Assembly (NCBI GenBank): GCA_964508605.1
Contig: CAZDUI010000006.1
Span: 44,903 to 108,902 of the forward strand
Direction: 5' to 3'
DNA length: 64,000 nucleotides
From: an uncultured Weeksellaceae bacterium
Lineage (GTDB): Bacteria > Bacteroidota > Bacteroidia > Flavobacteriales_D > CAZDUI01
Made by a program: the position numbers and the translations under genes. The notes beneath the pieces were generated by a model. The model saw only the letters and a program-made list of their open reading frames with translations, did no database searches and was not told the origin of the DNA. Position 1 is the first letter of the stretch; every line of letters begins with the position of its first letter. This document shows positions 4,660-63,631 of the stretch, piece after piece.

Positions 4660-7251
4660 CTATTGAACCACCAGCTGCATAACCTGAACTCCTTTTTTGG
4701 AAATTGCACGAAGGATATAGGTTCCAGAAGCGAAATGTGTTTCCAGTTCAAAGTCAGAACTGCGGTAATCGCTCCATACTTTTCTGCCTGAAAAATCTGA
4801 GAGTTCAAAAAGCGCCGGACTATCAATACCCGATATATGAAACAGCCCGTTGGCAGGATTTGGATATACCGAAATAGCTTTCTCAGTAACTTCATGAATA
4901 TCCTCACAAATGTACCACAATGTATCAGAAACTCCTGTGCATCCGTTTGCGTATTCTATTTCGGCTGTGTACATCCCAAAACACTGGTCAATCTCCCAAT
5001 AATTTGAAGTGCCTGAATACACCCATACCGGAATTCCGGAATCAACATCGTACAAAGTATAGTGCTGCGCAGTTTCCGGAAAAATTTCAAGCACTGCAGA
5101 ATAAATACCACTCAATGAATCAGGACTCACTGTTACCATACCGTACGGAGCAAAAAAATCGTGAACTACCACCGTGTCGGAGTAACCCCGGCAGCCAAAA
5201 CTGTTTTCGGCAATATACCAAATAGTATCCTGCTGGGTTAATTGAATAAATGCTGCAGTATCGGTTTCGTTCCAAATTACTGAGGGATAGGTCTGGTCTG
5301 GCACCATGTTAACAGAACCGGGCTGGCAGATTACAGTATCTCCGGAAACCAAAGGATAGAAATTACTCTGTACCAACGCCCTGAATATATCTATTTTACC
5401 ATACCCAAAAGTATCGTTGGGAATAATACCCGTATAAGAATCTTGCCGTGCAGTAGAAGTAATCAGCTGCTTGAATTCTTCGGGTGTTCCCAGCGGACAT
5501 TTTTGCAAATACAACGCCGCCGCACCTGCTACTACCGGCGATGCCATACTTGTTCCACCGTTGCGCACGTGCATGCCGCCGGGTGCAAGTACATGGGGTG
5601 CCGTAGTTTGATAATTTGCCAGCAATCCCATAGATCCGGCTGAAAAAGTCACATCGCCTGTTGCGGCAATATCGGGTTTTGTACGCATATCGCGGGTAGG
5701 ACCGTAACTGCTGTTTTTTGAAATCTTACCCTGCACACCGGGTAATACCTGCAAATTGTTATTGTAATCGGTATAACTTAGGTACCCGTTCATGTTTCCT
5801 ACGGTTATAACATTAGGTGAGCAGGCCCATGACGAAACAATGATCTTTCGGTCGTCCGGTGCGCGATAGTTGATAATCTGAGGGAAATCGACCGGTGCAG
5901 GCACAACGGTATCCATAAAATTAAGGCCCAGCCATGCTGCCGACCACAGGTCGAAGGTACCTGTACCTGTTGTCATCAGGGCAAAGCGGTAATCTGTGCT
6001 GCTGCTGTCGGGTTCCGGAATGTAAATTTGATACAGCCTTTGTGCTCCTCTCTCTTCACTGTAAAACTGAACAGTGGCCAGGGTATCTCCGGCGGTATTG
6101 AAAATGGTGTCGTATTGCATTATCTGGTCACAGTCAGCCGGTGCGTAAAAAGCAGTTTTGCCCCTTCGTTTAAAGGATGGATTTACCATATCGGCAGCGA
6201 TTGAAAACTGTACCTGGCGCAAATCGGCTGTATCGGCCCATATTTCCATGAACAACCCCGGACCCAGCGCCATAGACGAGTTATACTGAAACCATGTAAA
6301 GGCAGTATCTGCTGTTACTGTATAGTTCAGGTGGTAGCGTCCGGCACTGCCACTGTTACCTGCAGCACACACCATAATTCTGCCGTGTTTGGCAGCAAGC
6401 AAACTATCAATATATAAAGCTGCCGGATCTTTGCCGTCGTGAGAACCCAGATAATCGCCCAGACTGGCATTTATAACCACCGGACGCTGCAGAGAATCGG
6501 CCACACTAACAATATAATCCACGGCATCGGCTACACTTTGCAACCAATTGGTATTGTTAAAATCGCTGCTTACAATAATCAGGTCGGTGGCCGGTGCTAC
6601 GCCACGGTGGTACCCATTTTCTAAGGCGTTGCCTGCTGCTGTGCCGGTTACTGTACAACCGTGATCTAAATACTGCCCCGTAATCAAAGCAGTACCTGAA
6701 TTTATATCTGTACTGTCCCAAACCTGGCCATAGCCGTATTTTGGAGGTGTGCGGCCCGGGTCAAAAGCTTCAAACTGATTCCACATTCTTAATACACGTG
6801 TACTACCGTCTGCATTTTTAAAATCACCGTGATTAAAATCAATGCCACCATCAATAATACCCATCAAAACATTGCTGCCATCCAAGGGAATGTTCAGAGG
6901 TGCATAACCATAAAAAGCACTGTCCACATTATTGATTTGCCGGTTGGTATCGTTTAATACTACCGGTTTACTCAGTTGATAATCTATTCGATTTACACCG
7001 CTACAGGCAGCAAGCGCTTCCACTTGTTTTGCTGCAACGCGAATGCACAGGTATTTTCCGGCGCGGTACTGAATGGTGCCCCCAAAATCCAATATATGCT
7101 TCTCTGCCTCTGTGTTACAAAGCACATACAGTCCCAGAGTCTGGTCTGGCGAATTCTTTATTAATTGCCGTAAAGGAATATTTATGCCACACTGTGCCGC
7201 AACACCTGCATACGTTACAGCCATCAACAAAAACAGAATTGCGCGACTCAT
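4660..7251 (-). CDS. S8 subtilisin-family serine peptidase with T9SS C-terminal sorting domain
   Basis: Catalytic triad motifs IIDGGID (Asp), HGCTVTG (His) and GGTSMASP (Ser). The C-terminus VYPNPANGLFHISG...GTYILRAISKKG is a typical T9SS CTD. Start moved to MSRAILFLL (ATG at 7251), which gives a signal peptide. Confidence 0.9.
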   Translation of the reverse strand: MSRAILFLLMAVTYAGVAAQCGINIPLRQLIKNSPDQTLGLYVLCNTEAEKHILDFGGTIQYRAGKYLCIRVAAKQVEALAACSGVNRIDYQLSKPVVLNDTNRQINNVDSAFYGYAPLNIPLDGSNVLMGIIDGGIDFNHGDFKNADGSTRVLRMWNQFEAFDPGRTPPKYGYGQVWDSTDINSGTALITGQYLDHGCTVTGTAAGNALENGYHRGVAPATDLIIVSSDFNNTNWLQSVADAVDYIVSVADSLQRPVVINASLGDYLGSHDGKDPAALYIDSLLAAKHGRIMVCAAGNSGSAGRYHLNYTVTADTAFTWFQYNSSMALGPGLFMEIWADTADLRQVQFSIAADMVNPSFKRRGKTAFYAPADCDQIMQYDTIFNTAGDTLATVQFYSEERGAQRLYQIYIPEPDSSSTDYRFALMTTGTGTFDLWSAAWLGLNFMDTVVPAPVDFPQIINYRAPDDRKIIVSSWACSPNVITVGNMNGYLSYTDYNNNLQVLPGVQGKISKNSSYGPTRDMRTKPDIAATGDVTFSAGSMGLLANYQTTAPHVLAPGGMHVRNGGTSMASPVVAGAAALYLQKCPLGTPEEFKQLITSTARQDSYTGIIPNDTFGYGKIDIFRALVQSNFYPLVSGDTVICQPGSVNMVPDQTYPSVIWNETDTAAFIQLTQQDTIWYIAENSFGCRGYSDTVVVHDFFAPYGMVTVSPDSLSGIYSAVLEIFPETAQHYTLYDVDSGIPVWVYSGTSNYWEIDQCFGMYTAEIEYANGCTGVSDTLWYICEDIHEVTEKAISVYPNPANGLFHISGIDSPALFELSDFSGRKVWSDYRSSDFELETHFASGTYILRAISKKGVQVMQLVVQ

Positions 7252-12396: not shown

Positions 12397-12400
12397 GTTA

Positions 12401-12435
12401 GAAGAATTAGAGCGACCTTGTCGCTCTAATTCTTC
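12401..12435 (-). terminator. perfect 15-bp stem-loop between rnhA and the tail-fibre-like gene
   Basis: GAAGAATTAGAGCGA ccttg TCGCTCTAATTCTTC. It lies 70 nt downstream of the rnhA stop and ends 4 nt before the ATG at 12396. There is no clear U-tract. Confidence 0.5.
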
Positions 12436-12504
12436 TCTTTACCAAATTTTTAGTGTTAAATTTCTCCTTTCAGTAAAAAACGGCGATTCTACACACACCA
12501 TCTA

Positions 12505-26401: not shown

Positions 26402-29038
26402 TCAATAATTCGATTTAAAAAAATCGCTGTACGCATCCGTTTTCTTCTCGAGAAACAGCGTATTGTAATTTTTATGAGTAATTACAAAGAAATCAAGATT
26501 CTGATTGTAGCTTTTTACATGCGTTGTATTGCTCTTAAACGCATTATAATATTGTAAGGCCTCTGTACTGTTTGCGAAGCTTTTAACCAGCACCATTTGC
26601 TGCTCAGGATTCAAAAAGGTTGTAGATGTTTTATATTGCTTAGAATTAAAAGATGTTCTGTTAAAGTCGCTTAGCGCACGGGTTACCTGGTTAATTTTTC
26701 CTAAATCTGAAGGATATATCAAAACAAAAAAGTGTTCCATATCGGCATTAAAAACATATGGACTACTGCCGGCAAGTGCATCTCCGCCGGTTTTTACCTT
26801 CTTCATGTTGTCCAATAATTTCTTAGCCATTTTTCCTTCATCCGTCTCGGGAAAACGGGTTATGCATTCCTGTAAAACCACAGTGATGGAATCATTATTT
26901 TTATCGGGTAACATGCCCATTGCATAGGCTTTAAGCAACAAATACTCAGGAGAGAATCTGTTCTCAGGTTTCACAGCCAACCTCATATTACACAACCCAA
27001 TAACTTCATTATATTGTTCTAACTGGTATAATGCATAGGTGTTGTTATATTCAAATTCCTGAATTCTTGTTGCTTCTTCTTTTTTCTTTAAGTAATCTGG
27101 ATCTTGAATAATTTTAGCATAATCGCTGTCAGGAAAATTGTTTATTATAAAATCCTTATACTCTTCTGTTGCTGCGTTATTCTTTTCCTTTAACAGCGTA
27201 TATAACTGAAAAGCAGCAGCCAGTGCTTTTTTGTCGGGCTGAAACCGACTGTACGATTCGCTAAAGTACTTTTCGGCTGTTTTCAAATCTTTAAAGCGTT
27301 CCCGGTAAATTACACCCAAATTATACAAACTCGTCGCAATTTTATTCAATGCTTCATCTTGTTGTTTATCAGTAAGCGGCAAGTTTTTTACATAGTATTC
27401 CCTGCTGTACGGGTCGTTCTCGGCAGGAACCGAAACAGTACTATCCTGAGCACTTTCATCTACTGCAAACTGAGACTTGTCTTTTCTTCTCCAGTTGTCT
27501 TCATTTACCCTGTCTCCCCACATTCTTCTAAATTCGGCAACACCAAAAGCAATCGCTTCATTATTATAAAAATACCAACCACCTTTTCCTCCACGTCCTG
27601 CTGCAACCACCGGAGCCGAAGATTGTGCATTGCGTTTAAGCCGCTCCTTCTCTTTAAAGTCTTCAATTAGTTTGTCAATTTTATCCAGATAACACGATTC
27701 GCCGCAGCGAGCCAGTTTCAGTAAGGAATCATTTGTGTTATATGTATTAAAATTCTCTACCAGGTCTGTTAATCCTTCGGACCTGTCCTTCACCAGAGAC
27801 AAAGATTCAAAATCCTCTTTTGCTACCGTTAAACAGCTGTCGTAAAATAATTTTGCCTGAGGGAATTTTTCACTGTCATAATGGATATTGCCAAGTCTGT
27901 AATACGTTCTTGTTTTCTGGCGGTCGTTGTTTACCGACGCCTTTGCCGACCTTAAAAAGTTTTGAATGGCCTCCGGTTGATTCCCGTCTTTCATGTCAAG
28001 CTCACCCAAAGCATAATAAATCTGATCGCGGAATTCAATGTTTTTATCGTCCTTTAATAATTTTCTCAATTCTGCCCTCAGGCTACGGGTATCATCGCCT
28101 GCATACAACAACGCCTTAAAAATTCTCGCATGAAAGGCCAGCTTGTAGTCGGCCGACAGTTTCATGGCGCGGTCAAAATTTAATGATGCCTGGGTATTAT
28201 TATTGAGTTTTTGATACACCTGTGCCAGAACAAAGTGTAATCTAGCTTTTTCCTTCCGGTTTTCAGCAATCTTAATGGCCTCCTCCAATCGCTCAGCAGC
28301 CTGGGTATATTCCTTTTTATGCAAATGGATATCGGCAAACAAGATAATTACATCGTCCTGCAAATCTTCAGGGAAGAGCGGTGTGATGGTTTTAACCGAT
28401 TTTTTCTTCTTTTTTCGTTCCTTAATTATCTTTTTATTTTCTTCAATAATGCTTTTGCGGTTGTCTTTATGCTCCTTAATAATTTCTTCCAGTTTCTGAA
28501 GCAACGCAAACGCGTTACCAAAGTCTGCCTTGTGTATATAGGTTTGAGCAATCCAGATATCAGCATGATAGATTGATGGCTCTTCCGGATAATTCAGCTT
28601 TACATACTTTAACTTCTCTAATGCCTCTTTGTAGTCGTGTTTTAGCACATAAGCCTTCCCCATTACCAGCCAGTTTTCGTCAATCCAACGACACCATTCT
28701 TCTCTCTTATCTTTAGTGCCTTTGTGCGGGTTAGGCATACTGTGTTTGGTTATAACCAAAGAGGTTTTTTTTATGGCCGATTCCATTTGACTGTTCAGGG
28801 CATCTGCATCTGCCTGCCCGGGATACAGGGTAACCGGAAGAACGTCAAAGTAATTTTCCTGATAAGAGGCCCTGTACTCTATTAAGGAAGTGCGGATAAT
28901 TTCTCCGGCATTGAAATAGCCATTGTATCTGGCAGTCATGTTGTGATAACCGCGATTTATCCATCGATTCTTTTCGGTAGAACATGAAGAGACTGTTACC
29001 AGACCCAGTAATATAATATAAAAAATCCTCAATTTCAA
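26402..29038 (-). CDS. porW: TPR lipoprotein resembling T9SS component PorW/SprE
   Basis: 878 aa with lipobox VTVSSCS. The N-terminal NRWINRGYHNMTARYNGYFNAGE resembles the SprE/PorW N-terminal signature as I remember it. Multiple TPR-like repeats and size match SprE. The ORF begins at TTG directly after an in-frame TGA. Confidence 0.65.
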   Translation of the reverse strand: MKLRIFYIILLGLVTVSSCSTEKNRWINRGYHNMTARYNGYFNAGEIIRTSLIEYRASYQENYFDVLPVTLYPGQADADALNSQMESAIKKTSLVITKHSMPNPHKGTKDKREEWCRWIDENWLVMGKAYVLKHDYKEALEKLKYVKLNYPEEPSIYHADIWIAQTYIHKADFGNAFALLQKLEEIIKEHKDNRKSIIEENKKIIKERKKKKKSVKTITPLFPEDLQDDVIILFADIHLHKKEYTQAAERLEEAIKIAENRKEKARLHFVLAQVYQKLNNNTQASLNFDRAMKLSADYKLAFHARIFKALLYAGDDTRSLRAELRKLLKDDKNIEFRDQIYYALGELDMKDGNQPEAIQNFLRSAKASVNNDRQKTRTYYRLGNIHYDSEKFPQAKLFYDSCLTVAKEDFESLSLVKDRSEGLTDLVENFNTYNTNDSLLKLARCGESCYLDKIDKLIEDFKEKERLKRNAQSSAPVVAAGRGGKGGWYFYNNEAIAFGVAEFRRMWGDRVNEDNWRRKDKSQFAVDESAQDSTVSVPAENDPYSREYYVKNLPLTDKQQDEALNKIATSLYNLGVIYRERFKDLKTAEKYFSESYSRFQPDKKALAAAFQLYTLLKEKNNAATEEYKDFIINNFPDSDYAKIIQDPDYLKKKEEATRIQEFEYNNTYALYQLEQYNEVIGLCNMRLAVKPENRFSPEYLLLKAYAMGMLPDKNNDSITVVLQECITRFPETDEGKMAKKLLDNMKKVKTGGDALAGSSPYVFNADMEHFFVLIYPSDLGKINQVTRALSDFNRTSFNSKQYKTSTTFLNPEQQMVLVKSFANSTEALQYYNAFKSNTTHVKSYNQNLDFFVITHKNYNTLFLEKKTDAYSDFFKSNY

Positions 29039-29419
29039 ATCAATACATTTAGCCTGTATATTGTATGTATTTCTGGTTCAGCCCATGCCAAAAACCAAAA
29101 AGCCGTGACAATAACAGCGAAAGGGCAAATTTATTTTAAATTCTTTAGCAGGAGATAAAAAATGGCCTGAATGGCAGGTCTACCCATTTAAGAATAGAAA
29201 GAAATAAAGATGAATAACACATAAATAGTTGGCTGAAACCATTTTTGTTTCTCAATATAAGTTTTGATAATCAGATTTTAATTTGAAAATGCAACTTGTA
29301 TAAAGAAATAAAGACTTCGTCTGCCGGCTGGGTATTCCTTTTGTCAACGGTCAAAAAGGAATCAAAAACCGCTTTTTTAAAGCGAACCTGCTCGTGTATT
29401 TGAAAATTAAACTTACCTT

Positions 29420-29605
29420 CAAGGGGATAAATAAAATTAACAGATAGCAATTTTTGAGATTTTTTCCAACAGATTCGACTCGTTTTTTGACAAATATAGC
29501 GGGCCATATTTGGATAAAAATGAGAGAAGGTGCGGAAAAAAACAAAAAGTGCATCTGAATGTGCTTTTACTGATAATTAGAAACTGATTTTATATATCCC
29601 CGCTG
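29420..29605 (+). repeat. rod-like palindromic intergenic element, copy A (candidate structured sRNA or MITE-like repeat)
   Basis: Closing stem 29423-29439/29585-29601. Middle helix 29458-29467/29534-29543. Apical hairpin 29483-29520. 77/100 ungapped identity between 29421-29520 and 63341-63440. The G-U pairs are only valid on the plus strand. Confidence 0.6.
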
Positions 29606-29968
29606 GTCTCATGTAAACTCAATTACGCCAATAGCGACAGATAATGCTCGTCTGTCGATGGCTGGATTTCAAACAGCACATTCGACGGGCGTTCGGGTTG
29701 CATTATTTTCTAAATACAACTCCCACGATTCGCTAGGTTAATCCTTTATTCTAATTACAATTAAATTAAAACCGGTTCATTATCAATTTACCATAGCCAT
29801 AAAATTTCTCCTTTCAATTATGGCAAATATATTTGTGCTCGTTCCAGCCTGAACGAAAGGAAGAACCATATATCAACTGAGGAGTTTGGCTGTGCAAGTA
29901 CACCATCAGGTTATCCGGATTCTTTATTAAGACGAAGGAAATAATACACGATACATGAAACTGTCAGC

Positions 29969-30661
29969 TTAGAACAACCATCCATATCTAACAAACAGAT
30001 ACTGAATGACAAATCCTGCCAGCGCACCTAAAAACACCTGATCCACTGAATGAACTTTTCTTATTACCCGTGCTGCTCCAACTACACCTATGGCGGCCAT
30101 AACCAAAGCAATCACTTCATGATGTCGGTAAAAAACAACATCTGTCAGCGCGTACAACATTCCGGCAACACCTGCTACCGACATAGCGTGCATACTGATT
30201 TTATATCGCAGTGTAATTAGCAAACCCAGGGCCATGCAGGTAAGAGCCCCTGAAAAGGCGCTAAATACTACGGGATGGATGTACGCCTTGCCCTTGGCGA
30301 GCATATAATAAGCCATAGCATAAAAAAGAAAGGTAGTTAGAAACGGCGATAATCTCTCCTTTGGATTCTGCAAATCCATTGACCTTATAAACCTGAAACT
30401 GTACAAAACCAGCGTACTTAAAACGGGTGCGGCAACTAAAACCATTAACAATAGATAAATACCCTGAAGTACCCGGGGGTCGGTTAAATCTCTAATCTCT
30501 GTATCAGCCGAGAACATCAGCCGAAATCCAAACAAAGGCATAAAAACCGGATGAAAAACAATGGAAACAACTTTAGCAACCGATTCTAACACAACATTTT
30601 CCTTACCGGAGTTTATACCCGGTTGATTTGTTGATATTACAGGCTCATTTTGATTTTCCAT
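29969..30661 (-). CDS. PAP2-superfamily membrane phosphatase-like protein
   Basis: The track ORF is trimmed to MENQNEPVIS (ATG at 30661), because the upstream 93 codons overlap the divergent gene and look non-coding. Multiple TM helices, with SMHAMSVAG and RKVHSVDQV resembling PAP2 motifs C2/C3. Confidence 0.6.
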   Translation of the reverse strand: MENQNEPVISTNQPGINSGKENVVLESVAKVVSIVFHPVFMPLFGFRLMFSADTEIRDLTDPRVLQGIYLLLMVLVAAPVLSTLVLYSFRFIRSMDLQNPKERLSPFLTTFLFYAMAYYMLAKGKAYIHPVVFSAFSGALTCMALGLLITLRYKISMHAMSVAGVAGMLYALTDVVFYRHHEVIALVMAAIGVVGAARVIRKVHSVDQVFLGALAGFVIQYLFVRYGWLF

Positions 30662-30729
30662 ACCGGCCGTGAAGGTACGTACTTTTACAAAACATCTTGT
30701 ATCGCCTGTTGTTTTTATATCTTCGCGGC

Positions 30730-31758
30730 ATGCATCTGGTAACAGGCTCAACAGGATTACTGGGAACTCACCTACTGGCCGAATTGCTGCGCAATGGCCA
30801 CCATCCGGTGAAAGCCTTATATCGCAGCGAAGCGAAAAAACAATACAGTATTGATTTGATATCCTTTTGCTATCCCGGACTAGAAAACGAGATGCAAAGT
30901 ATTGAATGGATAAACTGCGACATTCTTGACATTGATGCACTTTACGATGCCATGCAGGGTTGCAGGGTAGTATGGCACACTGCCGGATTTGTATCTTTCA
31001 GCAACCGGGACAGTAAAACCCTGATGGAGGTGAATGTACAGGGAACTAAAAATGTTGTAAACTGTGCCCTGGAACTAAATGTTTCCCGCTTCATCCACGT
31101 TAGCTCTACAGCCGCGATATCCAGAAAAAAAGGTGCAACTGAAATTGACGAAAACAATGCGTGGAATCGTGAAATCAGTGGATCGTGGTATGCCCGTACA
31201 AAATTTATGGCTGAACGAGAAGTATGGCGGGCGTCTGAAGAAGGAATGGAAATAATTATTGTAAACCCTTCAGTGATAATAGGCCCCGGAGACTGGCATC
31301 AAAGCAGTCTGGAAATTTTCAAAAGAGTGAACCGGGGGCTCAGTTTTTATCCTGCCGGTGCAGATGCCTTTACCGATGTTCGCGACATTTGCAGGGCTAT
31401 GTGCCTGTTGCATCAAAAAAATATAACCGGGCAGCGCTTTCTTATAGCCGGAAATAATATTCCTTTCAAGGTATTATTAGATAAAATTGCTATTTCTCTG
31501 AATAAAAAACCTCCCACATTTGCAGTAAAACGTTGGATGATTTCCATAGCCTGGCGATTTGATGCTGCCTTAAGCTTTATTACAGGTCGTTCTCAGAAAT
31601 TAAATAAACATACTGCCCGCGCAGCAATGCGCATTTCGAAATATGATGGTACTGCCATTCAAAAGGCCACCGGTTTGGAATACACTGCAACTGATGATGC
31701 CATATCGTTTGCAAACCTTTGGTTTATGCATCGGTACCCTGTGAATTCAGGAAGATGA
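30730..31758 (+). CDS. NAD-dependent epimerase/dehydratase family protein
   Basis: Start set at MHLVTGSTGLLGTHL (Rossmann GxxGxxG at the N-terminus). YARTK catalytic YxxxK. Confidence 0.85.
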   Translation: MHLVTGSTGLLGTHLLAELLRNGHHPVKALYRSEAKKQYSIDLISFCYPGLENEMQSIEWINCDILDIDALYDAMQGCRVVWHTAGFVSFSNRDSKTLMEVNVQGTKNVVNCALELNVSRFIHVSSTAAISRKKGATEIDENNAWNREISGSWYARTKFMAEREVWRASEEGMEIIIVNPSVIIGPGDWHQSSLEIFKRVNRGLSFYPAGADAFTDVRDICRAMCLLHQKNITGQRFLIAGNNIPFKVLLDKIAISLNKKPPTFAVKRWMISIAWRFDAALSFITGRSQKLNKHTARAAMRISKYDGTAIQKATGLEYTATDDAISFANLWFMHRYPVNSGR

Positions 31759-51925: not shown

Positions 51926-53710
51926 TTACCGGCGAACAAACTGTGACACCTTACCGTTATCGTCATTTCTAAGTAAATAAATCCCTGATGACAGATGTGC
52001 GATATTCAGATTACTTGATGATTTAACAGACATTAAAACCCTTCCATTCAAGTCTGTAACCGTATAATTTCCGGTAAATTCAACTTGAATTACATCAGAT
52101 GACGGATTAGGATATACCGCAAACCCTTTGGAGCTATCATTTTGTTCTGCACCCATAATTCCTGATACTGCAAAAACAGACACTGTTCCACTTACCTCAT
52201 TAGAGCTTAGTAGCAAAGGATTGCCTGTAGGACTTGTGGCAGCCGGGATGAACAATAAATCTTCAGGCCCCAGATCTCCGGCAGCCGCTGTAGTTTCTGG
52301 TTGTGTAAAAAATCGGTGATTGTGGTAGGTAACAAACACGGGATTGATTGGATCGCTGATATTATATACTACAAATCCCCCCATCCTCTCCAGCCCGATT
52401 ACTGCATATGTGTTTCCAGAGGCATCCTGCATAATTTCAACACATTCCGGCTCGGGGCCTTTGTTATCGCTGCGTGAGTCCGCAGAGTTATTGTCGTCGT
52501 TATTGGAATTAAAATACGATGTCCATGGCGTCTGAGAAGTAATGGTTTCAAAATCGTCTCCACTGTCGTACACTAAACTCATTGCAGTATTCCAAATGGA
52601 GAATGAACGTGTTCCAAAAACATAGATTTCGTCGTAGTCTCCGTCGTTTCCGGCATCGCCCATAGAAGTAGTAAAATTGAGACGCCCCAGTTCATTGTCG
52701 GTTTGCAGGGTAGCTGCATTTGGAAATGCTACGGCATCCAGGGTAACATTTTTAATTCTCTCTTCTTCGCCAAACGCCGAGTAATCTCTTGAATCGCCTT
52801 CATTGGCTGAAATGATATAACCATTGCCACCAATTGAAATATACACCATTCCATCAGGTTGATACATTCCATAAACACCGGCTGGTGTAACGGCTATATC
52901 CACTCCGTCCTTATCGCTTGCATCTATAGCATTGCCTGCAACACTGAAATCTTTATACCCAAGACCTTTCAGCTCTGTTAAGGTACCGGTTGTCAAATCT
53001 ATCTTTGCCATAGCATTGTTTTCCTGTAATACCACAAACACAGTTTGTGAATCGTCACTTACAGCAATATATTCGGGTTCAAGGTCCTGTTGTATTGAAG
53101 CTGCGCCGCCATTACCAAAAATCCTAATCAGGGGATCAATATTTCCGGCATTGATACTTAAAAAATCAACTGTAGTTACTACCGCAGCACTTACCCCGGC
53201 TGAAATATCAATAATACTCACAGTACCTTCGGGGTCTGAAACATAATCATCGCTGGGTTCACCTTCATTTGCTGTAAGTACTTTATTTCCGTCAGGGGTA
53301 AAAGTAACCATATCAGGCATGGCGCCAACGGTTACCTGACCCAGATACGCAAGCGTTGTGGCGTCAAAAAAGACAACAGAACCATTCGCCTGAGGATTCG
53401 CATTTTCAACAGCAACGGCAATTATTTGATTTTTCACAGCTACGCTGTTCAGTCCGGCGCCATAGGACGCCATACTAATACTTTGCTCCAATGAAATGGC
53501 TGACGGGTTTGAAAAATCAATAACATCTAAACTATTGGAACCTCCGTTCGTTGAAAATATACGTTGACTTACAGGGTCATAAGCAATAATTTCGGTTGCA
53601 CTCACCTCAAAGCCACCATCCCGGTATGTACTTAAATGCGTAAATGAAATTTGAGCAGAGCATGCTCCGGCGGTTAAAGAAAATATAGACAATAGTAACT
53701 TTTTTTTCAT
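51926..53710 (-). CDS. choice-of-anchor-I-like beta-propeller protein with T9SS C-terminal domain
   Basis: 594 aa with a signal peptide. The N-terminal SATEIIAYDPVSQRIFSTNGGSNSLDVIDFSNPS resembles the choice-of-anchor I family as I remember it. The C-terminal VYPNPSSDVIQVEF...GIYLLRNDDNG is a T9SS CTD. Confidence 0.65.
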   Translation of the reverse strand: MKKKLLLSIFSLTAGACSAQISFTHLSTYRDGGFEVSATEIIAYDPVSQRIFSTNGGSNSLDVIDFSNPSAISLEQSISMASYGAGLNSVAVKNQIIAVAVENANPQANGSVVFFDATTLAYLGQVTVGAMPDMVTFTPDGNKVLTANEGEPSDDYVSDPEGTVSIIDISAGVSAAVVTTVDFLSINAGNIDPLIRIFGNGGAASIQQDLEPEYIAVSDDSQTVFVVLQENNAMAKIDLTTGTLTELKGLGYKDFSVAGNAIDASDKDGVDIAVTPAGVYGMYQPDGMVYISIGGNGYIISANEGDSRDYSAFGEEERIKNVTLDAVAFPNAATLQTDNELGRLNFTTSMGDAGNDGDYDEIYVFGTRSFSIWNTAMSLVYDSGDDFETITSQTPWTSYFNSNNDDNNSADSRSDNKGPEPECVEIMQDASGNTYAVIGLERMGGFVVYNISDPINPVFVTYHNHRFFTQPETTAAAGDLGPEDLLFIPAATSPTGNPLLLSSNEVSGTVSVFAVSGIMGAEQNDSSKGFAVYPNPSSDVIQVEFTGNYTVTDLNGRVLMSVKSSSNLNIAHLSSGIYLLRNDDNGKVSQFVRR

Positions 53711-56669: not shown

Positions 56670-57548
56670 TTAAGCCGAAACTGTTTCCAGTTCGCGATTC
56701 ACTTTCTTGAACAATCCCTGCAATACTGTCCCGGGACCACACTCGGTAACTGAGGTAACCCCGTCGGTTATCATATTTTGCATAATTTGTGTCCAGCGCA
56801 CCGGAGCGGTAAGCTGGGCAATCAGGTTATTGCGTATTTCTGCAGGATTTGTAACCGGCATTGCATTCACATTTTGATATACCGGACAACGGGGTGTATT
56901 GAAGGTTAATGCATTTATAGCCCTTTCAAGTTCTACCCGAGCCGGTTCCATTAGCGGACTGTGAAATGCACCACCTACCTGAAGCAGCAGTGCACGCTTT
57001 GCGCCAGCCTCTTTTAATTTTTCGCAGGCTGTATTTACTGCATTTATCTCTCCGGAAATTACCAACTGTCCGGGAGAATTGTAATTTGCCGGCACTACTA
57101 CTCCTTCTACCTCAGCACATATCCTTTCCACCTCAGCATCTTCCATTCCCAAAATGGCCGCCATAGTACTTGGCACCGCCTCACAAGCCTTTTGCATGGC
57201 ATTGGCACGCTGCTGAACCAATTTTAAACCGTCTTCAAACGATAAGGCCCCTGCCGAAACCAAAGCAGAAAATTCGCCGAGTGAATGACCAGCCACCATA
57301 TCCGGTACAAACGAATCGCCCAAAGTAACTGCCTTAATTACAGAATGAATAAAAATTGCAGGCTGGGTAACATTGGTTTGTTTCAGTGCGTCGTCGGTAC
57401 CTGTAAACATAACATCGGTAATTCGAAATCCCAAAATGTGATTTGCATTTTCAAACATCTCCCGTGCTCCTGAATACTCCTGATATAAATCGTGACCCAT
57501 ACCCGAAAACTGTGCTCCCTGACCCGGAAAAACATATGCTTTTTTCAT
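56670..57548 (-). CDS. fabD: malonyl CoA-acyl carrier protein transacylase
   Basis: 292 aa. FPGQGAQ, active-site GHSLGEFSA, and GAFHSPLM. Confidence 0.93.
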   Translation of the reverse strand: MKKAYVFPGQGAQFSGMGHDLYQEYSGAREMFENANHILGFRITDVMFTGTDDALKQTNVTQPAIFIHSVIKAVTLGDSFVPDMVAGHSLGEFSALVSAGALSFEDGLKLVQQRANAMQKACEAVPSTMAAILGMEDAEVERICAEVEGVVVPANYNSPGQLVISGEINAVNTACEKLKEAGAKRALLLQVGGAFHSPLMEPARVELERAINALTFNTPRCPVYQNVNAMPVTNPAEIRNNLIAQLTAPVRWTQIMQNMITDGVTSVTECGPGTVLQGLFKKVNRELETVSA

Positions 57549-57631
57549 CTATATAATTTTGGACGAAGGTATGAAAATACATGAAAAACGAACTAATCAA
57601 ACCTTTAGATTTCCTTTGGGTGATGGTTTAT

Positions 57632-58534
57632 TTATTTCTGAAACAGCTTATTCAGCGCATCATCCATTCGCTCATACCGGAAAGTAAATCCTGCTGCTTT
57701 TATTTTACTGTTGTCTGCACGATTTCCTTTAAGAACCAACTCTGAAAGTTTACCAAACATGAGTTTAAGAATAAAAGCGGGCACGTTAGGTAGCCATGCC
57801 TTTCTATTTAACGCCTTGGCAAAATACTTTGTAAATTCACGATTGGTTACATGCTGAGAGGCAACAGCATTATATACTCCTTTCACCTTTGGGTTCTCCA
57901 ATGCAAAAATCATCATTTCAGCAATATCGTCAATGTGAATCCAGGGCATCCATTGTTTGCCTGTACCCAGGGGGGCACCCAGTCCCATGCGAAACACGGG
58001 AATCATTTTATGAAGCGCACCTCCGCCAGCAGCCAGTACCACGCCAATTCGCAGTTTTACCACCCGGGCATTGCCCGTCCATTCATCGGCAGCCTGTTCC
58101 CATAAACGAACCACATTAGCAGTAAAATCTTCTCCATTACCATCATCTTCAGTAAATATTTTCGCGGAAGGATTAATACCATAGAAATTAATACCTGATG
58201 CTGAAATAAACGTTTCAGGAAAAATACCTTTCCGCTTGCATTGTTCCAGCAAAAAAGCAGATGTAAAAGTACGCGACCGGATAATATATTCCTTTCTGTC
58301 ACGTGTCCATCTTTCGTCGGCAATGCCTGCACCGGCAAGGTGAATTACGGTTTTCAGTCCTTCCAATGCAGCGTCATCAAATACTCCTGTTTCCGGGTCC
58401 CATTCAAAAGCTTTGTAGGTTCCGGCTTTTCCTGACCTGGACAACACAGCAAAATCTTTACCTAGCGCAGAGAGTTTTCTGCAGAGAGTTTTACCCAACA
58501 GTCCGGTACCACCTGTAATCAGAATTTCGGCCAT
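57632..58534 (-). CDS. TIGR01777/YfcH-like NAD-dependent epimerase family protein (with DUF1731-like C-terminus)
   Basis: Start set at MAEILITGGTGLLG (ATG at 58534). Size and C-terminal region are typical of the family. Confidence 0.82.
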   Translation of the reverse strand: MAEILITGGTGLLGKTLCRKLSALGKDFAVLSRSGKAGTYKAFEWDPETGVFDDAALEGLKTVIHLAGAGIADERWTRDRKEYIIRSRTFTSAFLLEQCKRKGIFPETFISASGINFYGINPSAKIFTEDDGNGEDFTANVVRLWEQAADEWTGNARVVKLRIGVVLAAGGGALHKMIPVFRMGLGAPLGTGKQWMPWIHIDDIAEMMIFALENPKVKGVYNAVASQHVTNREFTKYFAKALNRKAWLPNVPAFILKLMFGKLSELVLKGNRADNSKIKAAGFTFRYERMDDALNKLFQK

Positions 58535-58567
58535 ACACTTCAAACGCATAGGGCAGGTAAAGGTTTA

Positions 58568-60049
58568 CTATGTTTTCAAAAAGCGTTTAACATCCTCCAG
58601 GCTCTCAATTTTATCGTCGCTTACGGTAAAAAACAAATCTACGGTACTGCCTCTCTTCAGGGATTCAAAAGGAATTTTGTTGTATTCTTCAGCCGAAATT
58701 CTCGCCAGTTTACCTCCGTAAAGCGTAGTAATAATCATACTTCCGGGCATGTTGCGCAGTAATAAACTATCACTAAAGAAAACATCAGGGTTCAGACGCA
58801 CCAGGCTATTATTACCCGGCATTATCATATAAAACACATTGGTACGCAGATCTTCGGTTTTATGTAATGGCGTACTAAATTGTAGTTGCGTATGTACCAT
58901 TACCGGCTGCATCTGATCTTGCTTAATAAACTTATCCCAGTTAAAAATGCCAAACCCACCCAACTCAAAAGTGCGGTACACCACCTCCTTTTCGGCTATC
59001 ATCCGTTCCAGCTCCTTCACTTCCGCCATAACAGTTTCATATTCATTCTGCCAGTATGCGGCATCCTTTGCAAACAATTGCTGCACGGTCATTACAGCCT
59101 CCATATTCCCTTTAAACTTGCGCCCGTCGTAGTATTCAAGTACAAACCGGTATTTGTTCTTTCCCAGCGCGTACACTTGTGCAGAACGTGTATCGCCTGA
59201 GGGCGGCATCTTTGACGGATTGTCCATTTTCCATACGATTGCATCGGCTGGATATTTTCTGCCTTTAAATGCAATTTCCGCATATATACTTACACTTAAA
59301 GGAGTTACATTGTAATCTCGCAACTTATCTTTGATTTTGGGCGACTTTTCCATGATGGCAATAGCATGATAATTATTGTTTGCCAGCATATCCAACAGGC
59401 TGTGGTAATTCAGTACTGCATAGCCATCAGTAAATGGTATGGCGTGCGCCGGTATTTTTTCATTCATTTTACGCACCATCTCCACCCGTTCTGTATTTAT
59501 TTCAGGATCTCCCTCACCCTGATACGCCCAGTTCTTATCCTCTTCATTCAAATAAAAAAACCTGTAGGTACTGTCGCTTTGCATAGAACCCATGCGAACC
59601 GTAACATTCATTCCCGGTTTCACATTCAGGGTATTTCCCTTGGTATCGTGCGCACGAATTTCAAACATACCCGCGGTTTCAAAAGTCTCATCTTTTCCTT
59701 CCACTTTCATGGTCATTGGTATACCCGATACAAAAATATCGGCAGCGGTATGAAATTCCCTGTATGAAAGCACGGCTTCACCGTTGAAGGGTTTACCCTG
59801 GGCATCAGTGAGTGCGCCGGCAGGAATGGAAATAGTAGTTCCTTTTCCGTTTGCCGGACGAAGTACCTGTGATTTACCGGCATTAAAAGCAATTTTTTCA
59901 ATCGGAATATCTACTCCCTGAATGGGAGGCGCGATGAATGGTTTTACCTGCTTCGCATTTGTGTCGGCAAAAGAAGAGTCCATTTTTCCTCCGGTTTTAC
60001 AGGCCTGCATTATCAATGCACATCCCGCAACTGCAAATACTGCTTTCAT
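58568..60049 (-). CDS. lipoprotein, unknown function
   Basis: 493 aa with signal peptide and lipobox (ALIMQAC). No family recognised. Confidence 0.6.
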   Translation of the reverse strand: MKAVFAVAGCALIMQACKTGGKMDSSFADTNAKQVKPFIAPPIQGVDIPIEKIAFNAGKSQVLRPANGKGTTISIPAGALTDAQGKPFNGEAVLSYREFHTAADIFVSGIPMTMKVEGKDETFETAGMFEIRAHDTKGNTLNVKPGMNVTVRMGSMQSDSTYRFFYLNEEDKNWAYQGEGDPEINTERVEMVRKMNEKIPAHAIPFTDGYAVLNYHSLLDMLANNNYHAIAIMEKSPKIKDKLRDYNVTPLSVSIYAEIAFKGRKYPADAIVWKMDNPSKMPPSGDTRSAQVYALGKNKYRFVLEYYDGRKFKGNMEAVMTVQQLFAKDAAYWQNEYETVMAEVKELERMIAEKEVVYRTFELGGFGIFNWDKFIKQDQMQPVMVHTQLQFSTPLHKTEDLRTNVFYMIMPGNNSLVRLNPDVFFSDSLLLRNMPGSMIITTLYGGKLARISAEEYNKIPFESLKRGSTVDLFFTVSDDKIESLEDVKRFLKT

Positions 60050-60060
60050 GGTTGTTGGCT

Positions 60061-60732
60061 TTACTGGTTATTATGTTGTAAGTAGTGGTGAAGCGCTAAA
60101 TAAGAGTAACTGAATTGTTCGCCCTGAAATCGTTTTCCGTATGGAAATGCTTTTACCCTCTGCCATTGTTCTATCCTGTTGCGGGTATTCATAAAACCCA
60201 GATTATAGGCAGCAGCAGCAAATTGTACCCAATTCTCTGCAGACCCGGAGGCATTATCGGGGAAACGATGCGCCAGAACTTTCAGGAAAGCGCAAACATA
60301 ACGATACTGCCAGGCAAAGCTTTGTAGTCGTACCAGCCTTTCCCGGCGCACCGTTTCCCCGTGCTGAGTGATATAAGGAGTTAATAATACTGTGTCCGTA
60401 TTCAGTACCTCAATGTCTTCAGCAAATGAAGGTTTCATTTGCGCTGTGCCAATAGAAAAATCGGCATATCGGGTTCCAAATTGAACGTACAACAGCTCCA
60501 AAGCTTCCGTTTCTATCAAATTACTGATGCTGTTGTATCGTAAAAACTCAGGAAACACAACCGAAAGCGCCACTTCTGAATCGCATTGGCACGATACCGG
60601 AAGATTTTGAATTTCATTTCGTGCCGAAACAGTCATCATTACAGCCTTGCGGTAATCATCGCCAAAATACTTTGCCTCTGTGGAAGGACGAAAAGCGTAT
60701 ACTGTTGATAATATCATCAATAACAACTGCAT
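60061..60732 (-). CDS. hypothetical protein, possibly lysozyme-like (SLT-type lytic transglycosylase fold)
   Basis: 223 aa. VVFPEF (candidate catalytic Glu), FSIGTAQMKP and AAAYNLG loosely match the SLT E-S / GLMQ / AYNxG motif order. Confidence 0.45.
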   Translation of the reverse strand: MQLLLMILSTVYAFRPSTEAKYFGDDYRKAVMMTVSARNEIQNLPVSCQCDSEVALSVVFPEFLRYNSISNLIETEALELLYVQFGTRYADFSIGTAQMKPSFAEDIEVLNTDTVLLTPYITQHGETVRRERLVRLQSFAWQYRYVCAFLKVLAHRFPDNASGSAENWVQFAAAAYNLGFMNTRNRIEQWQRVKAFPYGKRFQGEQFSYSYLALHHYLQHNNQ

Positions 60733-63296: not shown

Positions 63297-63340
63297 AATT
63301 GTTTACGATTTTAATCCTTCAATAGAAATAACACTTTATA

Positions 63341-63631
63341 AAGGGGACTTTTAAAAATAGCAAATAGCAATTTTTAAATTTGTTTCCAGCAGATTCAATT
63401 CGTTTTTTGACTGATATTTCGGAATATATCAGGATAAAAAAACCTAGAAAATACATTAGAAAATCTATTGCGGGTTCAACCTGCTTTAAAATAAATAGTT
63501 TCACATTATTTTATTGCACTTTAAACCTTCATCATGAAGTCCTAACACATAATCCGTTTACTGCGTAAAGTAAAAAAATTGCATCTGAATACGTTGTAAA
63601 AGAAAATTAATGTTTATTTTTTCAATTCCTT
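63341..63631 (+). repeat. rod-like palindromic intergenic element, copy B (diverged, with ~110-nt extra segment in the 3' arm)
   Basis: The core 63341-63440 aligns ungapped with 29421-29520 (77/100). Apical hairpin CTGATAT ttcggaat ATATCAG at 63411-63432. TGCATCTGAAT recurs at 63580-63590. Candidate closing stem 63341-63360/63614-63631. Confidence 0.55.

Follow-up and report, generated by a model that had tools for sequence, protein, structure and literature searches.

The 64-kb stretch of an uncultured Flavobacteriales genome that is analysed here, and that I will call the window, holds between positions 29039 and 29968 a gap that is indeed, as the first-pass annotation of this DNA had stated, its largest when open reading frames of at least 150 aa are considered. 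The gap is bordered by two minus-strand genes, one for a TPR protein consistent with porW/sprE (26402-29038) and the other for a PAP2-family protein (29969-30940), and the closest named relatives of this PorW, and of the HPPD encoded further along the window, are found in Crocinitomicaceae or Flavobacteriales MAGs. Within the gap lies a 186-nt segment (29420-29605, copy A in what follows) that does form the long imperfect hairpin described for it, and for which two readings had been offered, namely a rod-shaped sRNA resembling 6S and read from the plus strand or, as the alternative, a MITE-like repeat.

Copy A is far better folded than shuffled sequence, and this is the case for both of its strands. 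The plus strand reaches a minimum free energy of -52.6 kcal/mol, compared with -30.4 +/- 3.6 in 200 dinucleotide-preserving shuffles (z -6.2; none of the 200 was as good), and the minus strand reaches -48.9 kcal/mol (z -6.8). The best fold includes the closing stem (29423-29439 / 29585-29601), the middle helix (as 29459-29467 / 29534-29542, GAUUUUUUCC/GGAAAAAAAC) and the apical hairpin (29483-29520) that had been drawn on paper, while the side hairpin drawn at 29547-29566 is absent from it, since 29441-29456 pairs with 29544-29558 instead. Because the minus strand folds almost as well as the plus strand, the signal is that of an inverted repeat at the DNA level and not that of a strand-specific RNA structure, and the argument that G-U pairs favour a plus-strand RNA amounts to no more than about 3.7 kcal/mol. 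Read directly, the sequence after the hairpin contains no T-run on either strand, and the three absences already reported for copy A, of a target-site duplication, of an adjoining transposase and of a U-tract, all hold.

An open reading frame of 67 aa on the minus strand (29351-29554) crosses copy A and is found in public records (NCBI, Logan) as protein P0121. Peptides from copy A and from the second copy, copy B, were searched against 5.8 billion proteins for further copies annotated as small ORFs, and nothing homologous to P0121 was found beyond the window's own ORF, which is almost certainly a spurious gene call. Elsewhere in the window, the spacer that separates two minus-strand genes contains an inverted repeat (12400-12436) whose 17-bp arms match perfectly around a 3-nt loop, probably an ordinary terminator.

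Copy A belongs to a family of which three copies were seen, two in the window and a third, copy C, in a sister strain, and these occupy three unrelated intergenic sites. The copies align from end to end save for internal deletions (nhmmer E 1e-52 to 1e-59), and what they have in common at their termini is a set of GGGG-ended inverted repeats, about 18-21 bp long (consensus GGGGAYWWMTAAAAWYAG; type GGGGAYWWMTAAAA). The repeats of copy A are given in Table 1; copy B has GGGGACTTTTAAAAATAG on the left and a degenerate right end, and copy C has 18-nt repeats reading GGGCACTTCTAAAAACAG and GGGGACTTCTAAAAACAG. Further inward, all three share a first block running from CAGATTC to TCGTTTTTTGAC and on through a stem-loop to GGATAAAAA, and a second block reading AAAAAGTGCATYTGAATA. 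Pairing in the stem-loop covers 97% of the alignment cells, and at two pairs both partners differ between copy A and copies B and C, a covariation that is weak and not significant, as it comes from three sequences only and 52 of 500 shuffles were equally good. The copies are rich in A and T (33% GC in copy A and 27% in copy B, compared with 42% for the window) and their coding capacity is limited to short ORFs, which stay open on both strands.

Table 1. Features of the window that belong to the repeat family or to its insertion sites, with what each rests on
Feature	Position	Strand	Basis
Older insertion (X), 489 nt without copy A, host of copy A	29172-29846	.	Missing from L057; present without copy A in L008 489-984
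Copy A, polymorphic segment, 186 nt	29420-29605	+	BLAST of window against L008 breaks at 29417/29606; junctions read; folds
Left terminal inverted repeat of copy A, GGGGATAAATAAAATTAACAG	29423-29443	+	Pairs with 29584-29601 in the fold; aligns with left ends of copies B and C
Internal stem-loop module in copies A, B and C (TTTTT / CAAATAT, loop, ATATTTG / AAAAA)	29481-29522	+	Alignment of three copies
Second conserved internal block, AAAAAGTGCATCTGAAT, 30 nt	29531-29560	+	Common to copy B (63562-63590) and copy C
Right terminal inverted repeat of copy A, GGGGATATATAAAATCAG on the minus strand	29584-29601	-	Fold and comparison of ends
Empty target site CTATG for copy C	58568-58572	.	Window 58571/58568 corresponds to L021 6250/6439; 188 extra bases in L021; junctions read
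Copy B, about 289 nt, longest version, degenerate right end	63343-63631	+	Alignment to copy A; nhmmer E 1e-59

The most complete version is copy B, which has about 110 additional internal bases that copy A lacks, while copy C is missing 29 nt from its left part and about 75 nt from its middle, and has about 60 nt in common with copy B that are missing from copy A. The rod shape is limited to copy A: copy B is not rod-like and folds only modestly above chance (z -2.7), and copy C, whose two strands both fold strongly (z -6.9 and -8.8), does not show the rod either. Since the copies differ by internal deletions, the rod is peculiar to copy A, and on this alignment the rod-like fold is an accident of that copy's internal deletion.

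Copy B had been placed near 63341-63631 by the first-pass annotation, and it is a real, though diverged, second copy, with 77% identity between 63341-63440 and 29421-29520 (E 8e-17) in addition to the 30-nt block of Table 1. It starts 47 nt past the stop codon of the HPPD gene and the same copy, unchanged, recurs in four Logan assemblies (L067-L070) of one strain that is 98% identical to the window. Taken together with the 44 nt that precede it, copy B (63297-63631, 335 nt) shows zero differences from L067, whereas its flanks differ by about 2%. Selection on the element was considered and rejected as the reason, since the differences from L067 fall in tight clusters that leave further stretches, of 1041 and 548 nt, equally free of them, so that the difference-free stretch reads as recombination mosaicism. 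In the strains that are 88% identical, synteny with the window breaks 16 nt after the HPPD stop codon (window 63312 onward; L021 11178-21161; L024 3405-5782), and the site of copy B is therefore not comparable there. What follows HPPD is copy B and then a sensor-like gene in the window, an AAA_14/DUF4143 ATPase followed by TPR-CHAT and TPR-SpoIIE proteins in L021-L023, and an ISL3-family insertion sequence in L024; judged from this gene content, the region past HPPD looks like a hot spot for variable DNA.

Copy C is 187 nt long and was found in two independent JGI samples (L021 and L022), where 188 bases are added to a site that is empty in the window; in L021 the filled site is located at 6247-6443, between a 493-aa gene and an epimerase/DUF1731 gene, and the element landed precisely on the TAG stop of the former, within the 33-nt spacer that separates these two co-directional genes. 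A CTATA borders the element at each end, in place of the single CTATG of the empty site in the window, and this duplication regenerates the TAG stop of the upstream 493-aa gene. Around the same site (window 56800-60600) the identity between the window and L021 is a mosaic, at 100% from 56821 to about 58320 and at 80-94% onward, and the switch falls about 250 nt or less from where copy C inserted, which suggests a putative recombination tract that ends near the heterologous insertion.

At the locus of copy A itself, hereafter site A, the comparison of strains reveals two insertions, one within the other. Site A is filled in the window, in L019 and in L058, and it is empty in L008 (JGI 3300048592), a contig that matches the window at 92-93% identity over PAP2, the spacer, porW and bactofilin and is without window positions 29418-29605, a block whose ends lie no more than 3 nt from where the hairpin closes. 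At the junction L008 has AAACTTACCTT-ACT-GTCTCATG, and the window has AAACTTACCTT, then the element from CAAGGGGAT to ATCCCCGCTG, then GTCTCATG; no target duplication is visible when the two are compared. A duplication or excision footprint was also considered, given that L008 has CTTAC-CTTAC at the empty site, which resembles one; the flanks in the window do not fit the model. From these sequences, the difference at site A fits an insertion in the lineage of the window or a loss in the lineage of L008 alike.

A larger block of 675 nt (29172-29846), with copy A nested inside it, is missing from L057 (JGI 3300048836, a 55-kb contig). This older insertion X is bordered by a 7-bp direct repeat, GCCTGAA, at 29165-29171 and 29847-29853, and no further copies of it were found in the data searched. 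Its ends read TGG...CCA, its versions in L008 and in the window are only 85% identical, and its target is a terminator-like hairpin after the PAP2 gene. The order of events would thus be that a native PAP2-porW spacer of about 350 nt first gained the 489-nt insertion X and that copy A landed inside this insertion next; the comparison of L008 and L057 with the window accordingly divides the 930-nt gap into the native spacer of about 350 nt and two nested insertions. Copy A is missing at the orthologous site in both of these strains, which are 93-95% identical to the window, and upstream of porW in L009-L011, whose PorW proteins (61% and 59% identity) are the nearest outside the species, and where a different gene precedes porW and the spacer is only 137-186 nt, the element is absent.

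Now considering that terminal inverted repeats are seen in three copies, that filled and empty alleles exist at two loci (sites A and C) and that one clear target-site duplication, CTATA at copy C, is present among the three copies, the MITE-like reading that had been offered as the alternative gains the most, and 29420-29605 is very probably one copy of a low-copy, AT-rich, non-coding and MITE-like non-autonomous DNA transposon. MITEs are defined as elements of 50-1000 bp that carry no transposase gene, and MITEs with such properties are known in Bacteroidota (PMC4596501); the copies seen here measure 186, 289 and 187 nt, and the strong folding of both strands in copies A and C matches the expectation for an inverted repeat at the DNA level. 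No target-site duplication could be recognised at copies A and B when their junctions and flanks were read. However, flanking duplications are often missing from known bacterial MITEs, for which RNA folds are also predicted (PMC4133298), and as the same is described for the TIMEs, the missing duplications in copies A and B and the small number of copies seen do not oppose the assignment. The best reading of the family is that of a new and apparently lineage-restricted member of this well-known bacterial class in uncultured Flavobacteriales.

For its movement I infer a transposase that recognises the GGGG-ended repeats. Such an enzyme, encoded elsewhere in the genome, would bind both ends of the element, which would insert into AT-rich intergenic DNA, and the staggered cut, once repaired, would leave a duplication of 4-5 bp. 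Copy A is an internally deleted derivative whose leftover left and right halves happen to pair over their full length, giving the rod. No transposase domain was seen in the scanned ORFs of the window, and no transposase with ends of the family's type was seen in the window or in the fetched loci. Pattern scans with the conserved block (CAGATTCNNNTCGTTTTTTGAC) across genome and metagenome contigs, collections from which the source genome seems to be absent, returned only chance matches confined to the pattern itself, a two-pattern scan of viral contigs returned only chance matches, no plasmid matched the element, and no copy was present in L071/L072, which says little at 74% nucleotide identity over 21 kb.

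Two insertion sequences of the sister strains were considered as parents. The ISL3-family element beside HPPD in L024 (3565-4934, with a split transposase) has ends that both start with TGGGGA(C/G)TAA and that begin TGGGGACTAAGCAAAAAG, and one of these ends, GGGGACTAAGCAAAAAG, has GGGGACT and an A-run in common with the MITE end GGGGACTTCTAAAAACAG, with no further similarity. It also made a 9-bp duplication, TAATTTTTA, where about 8 bp are expected for ISL3 and where copy C has 4-5 bp. A MITE derived from ISL3 was rejected on these grounds, and because only GGGGACT and the A-run match and the lengths of the duplications differ, the L024 element is unlikely to be the mobiliser. An rve-type (IS3-like) element at L021 1-936 interrupts a choice-of-anchor I / Por_Secre_tail gene in the L021/L022 strain, the counterpart of this position in the window being about 53257, inside ORF 51926-53710, where the gene is intact; the ends of this element do not match the family and it was set aside as a parent.

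Among described families, the MITEs of Porphyromonas gingivalis (BrickBuilt, MITE239/464; PMC4596501) are alike in being small, AT-rich, intergenic and non-coding with terminal inverted repeats, in having several diverged copies whose presence varies from strain to strain, and in belonging to the phylum Bacteroidota. They are unlike the present family in that the latter has neither internal tandem repeats nor similarity to anything retrievable, and in that the P. gingivalis elements have ends matching those of the IS5 family, while no insertion sequence with corresponding ends turned up for the family here. The TIMEs, which are MITEs derived from Tn3, are of similar size (262 bp, compared with about 190-290 nt here), and most of their copies are without flanking duplications, occur in low number and are predicted to form stable hairpins (PMC4133298), as is the case here, where a 5-bp duplication is present at copy C only; on the other hand, TIME inverted repeats are 38 bp long (PMC4133298), while those described here are 18-21 bp, TIMEs are found in Gammaproteobacteria, and no Tn3-family transposase was seen here. 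The GGGG ends together with the 5-bp duplication nevertheless recall the Tn3 family and the TIMEs. Tn3-family ends begin with GGGG, and the inner TAAG of the Tn3 consensus is lacking from the repeats of the present family. The Correia elements of Neisseria and the ERIC/IRU elements of enterobacteria are also imperfect palindromes over their whole length (100-190 nt), intergenic, often co-transcribed and polymorphic between strains, but their ends are different, and Correia elements have 26-bp repeats, a TA duplication and hundreds of copies, compared with CTATA at one copy and three known copies here.

The alternatives to a MITE can be weighed against the same observations, and the one that survives best is a hairpin-dependent single-strand DNA element, either a palindrome-associated derivative of IS200/IS605 or a REP/BIME moved by a RAYT-type tyrosine transposase, although it is quite improbable. 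Such elements insert without a target-site duplication, which agrees with copies A and B, the entire copy A is a hairpin and TTAC is found in its left flank; however, IS200/IS605-derived and REP/BIME sequences are expected to have a fixed motif and neither inverted repeats nor a duplication, while copy C combines its 4-5 bp duplication with 18-nt terminal inverted repeats in the manner typical of DDE transposition. In addition, the copies span 186-289 nt and not 20-40 nt, no flanking tetra- or pentanucleotide common to the three was found, and no Y1 transposase gene was seen in the scanned ORFs of the window.

It is less probable again that copy A is a local and non-mobile palindrome, gained or lost by replication slippage or recombination, with the other copies as old paralogous segments. 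The same element with the same ends at three unrelated loci speaks against this, as does copy C, a clean gain whose duplicated target gives a stop codon back, and there are no flanking direct repeats to explain a deletion of copy A by slippage, even though long palindromes are unstable and readily lost, copy A is without a duplication and three copies only are known.

The gene for a trans-acting, rod-shaped sRNA on the plus strand, 6S-like or other, which the first-pass annotation had put forward, is now very improbable indeed. At the gathering score Rfam has no match in the whole window, and between 29000 and 30000 even a threshold of E<=10 returns only noise, eukaryotic snoRNA and miRNA models for example, and no 6S family. 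The strong fold of copy A (z -6.2), the slightly greater stability of its plus strand and the presence of the internal stem-loop in three of three copies with its two pairs changed on both sides would be in favour of an RNA, but that covariation is not significant, copies B and C do not keep the rod, and the preference between strands is not conserved either, as the more stable strand of copy C is the one opposite to that of copy A (-67.6 vs -61.5 kcal/mol). Furthermore, a consensus scan around copy A found no plus-strand promoter or terminator, and the element is missing at the orthologous locus in the close relatives, at 93-95% identity, as well as in more distant ones. Integron attC sites, retron ncRNAs, type I toxin-antitoxin systems and CRISPR were dropped for want of a core motif, a reverse transcriptase, a hydrophobic peptide and a repeat array, respectively.

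Equally improbable is that the host has co-opted the MITE, with the internal stem-loop acting in cis on the transcripts of neighbouring genes through stability, processing or attenuation, as in Correia and ERIC elements. The stem-loop has been retained in all three copies despite deletions elsewhere, and copy C, lying inside an apparent operon of co-directional genes with a 33-nt spacer, would be co-transcribed; however, neither strand has a T-run after the hairpin, and an element that is carried by some and lacked by others among near-identical strains cannot be essential. The broader notion that the 42-nt stem-loop is a functional module of any kind, be it a site for a 5-bp-duplicating transposase acting at the GGGG-ended repeats or a portable RNA hairpin that would alter the expression of neighbouring genes, is unlikely, though less so than any of the four alternatives above.

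The MITE reading comes as a small biological surprise, given that MITEs are well known in bacteria, Bacteroidota included. Its value lies in what it clarifies: the long region upstream of porW is explained by two nested insertions and not by a regulatory region, a false sRNA candidate and the spurious 67-aa gene P0121 are removed from the annotation of this lineage, and the element becomes a marker of very recent genome change among co-occurring strains of an uncultured Flavobacteriales population. If the internal stem-loop were functional after all, the family would be more than selfish DNA, and copy C, which sits in an apparent operon and exactly at a stop codon, would be the example.
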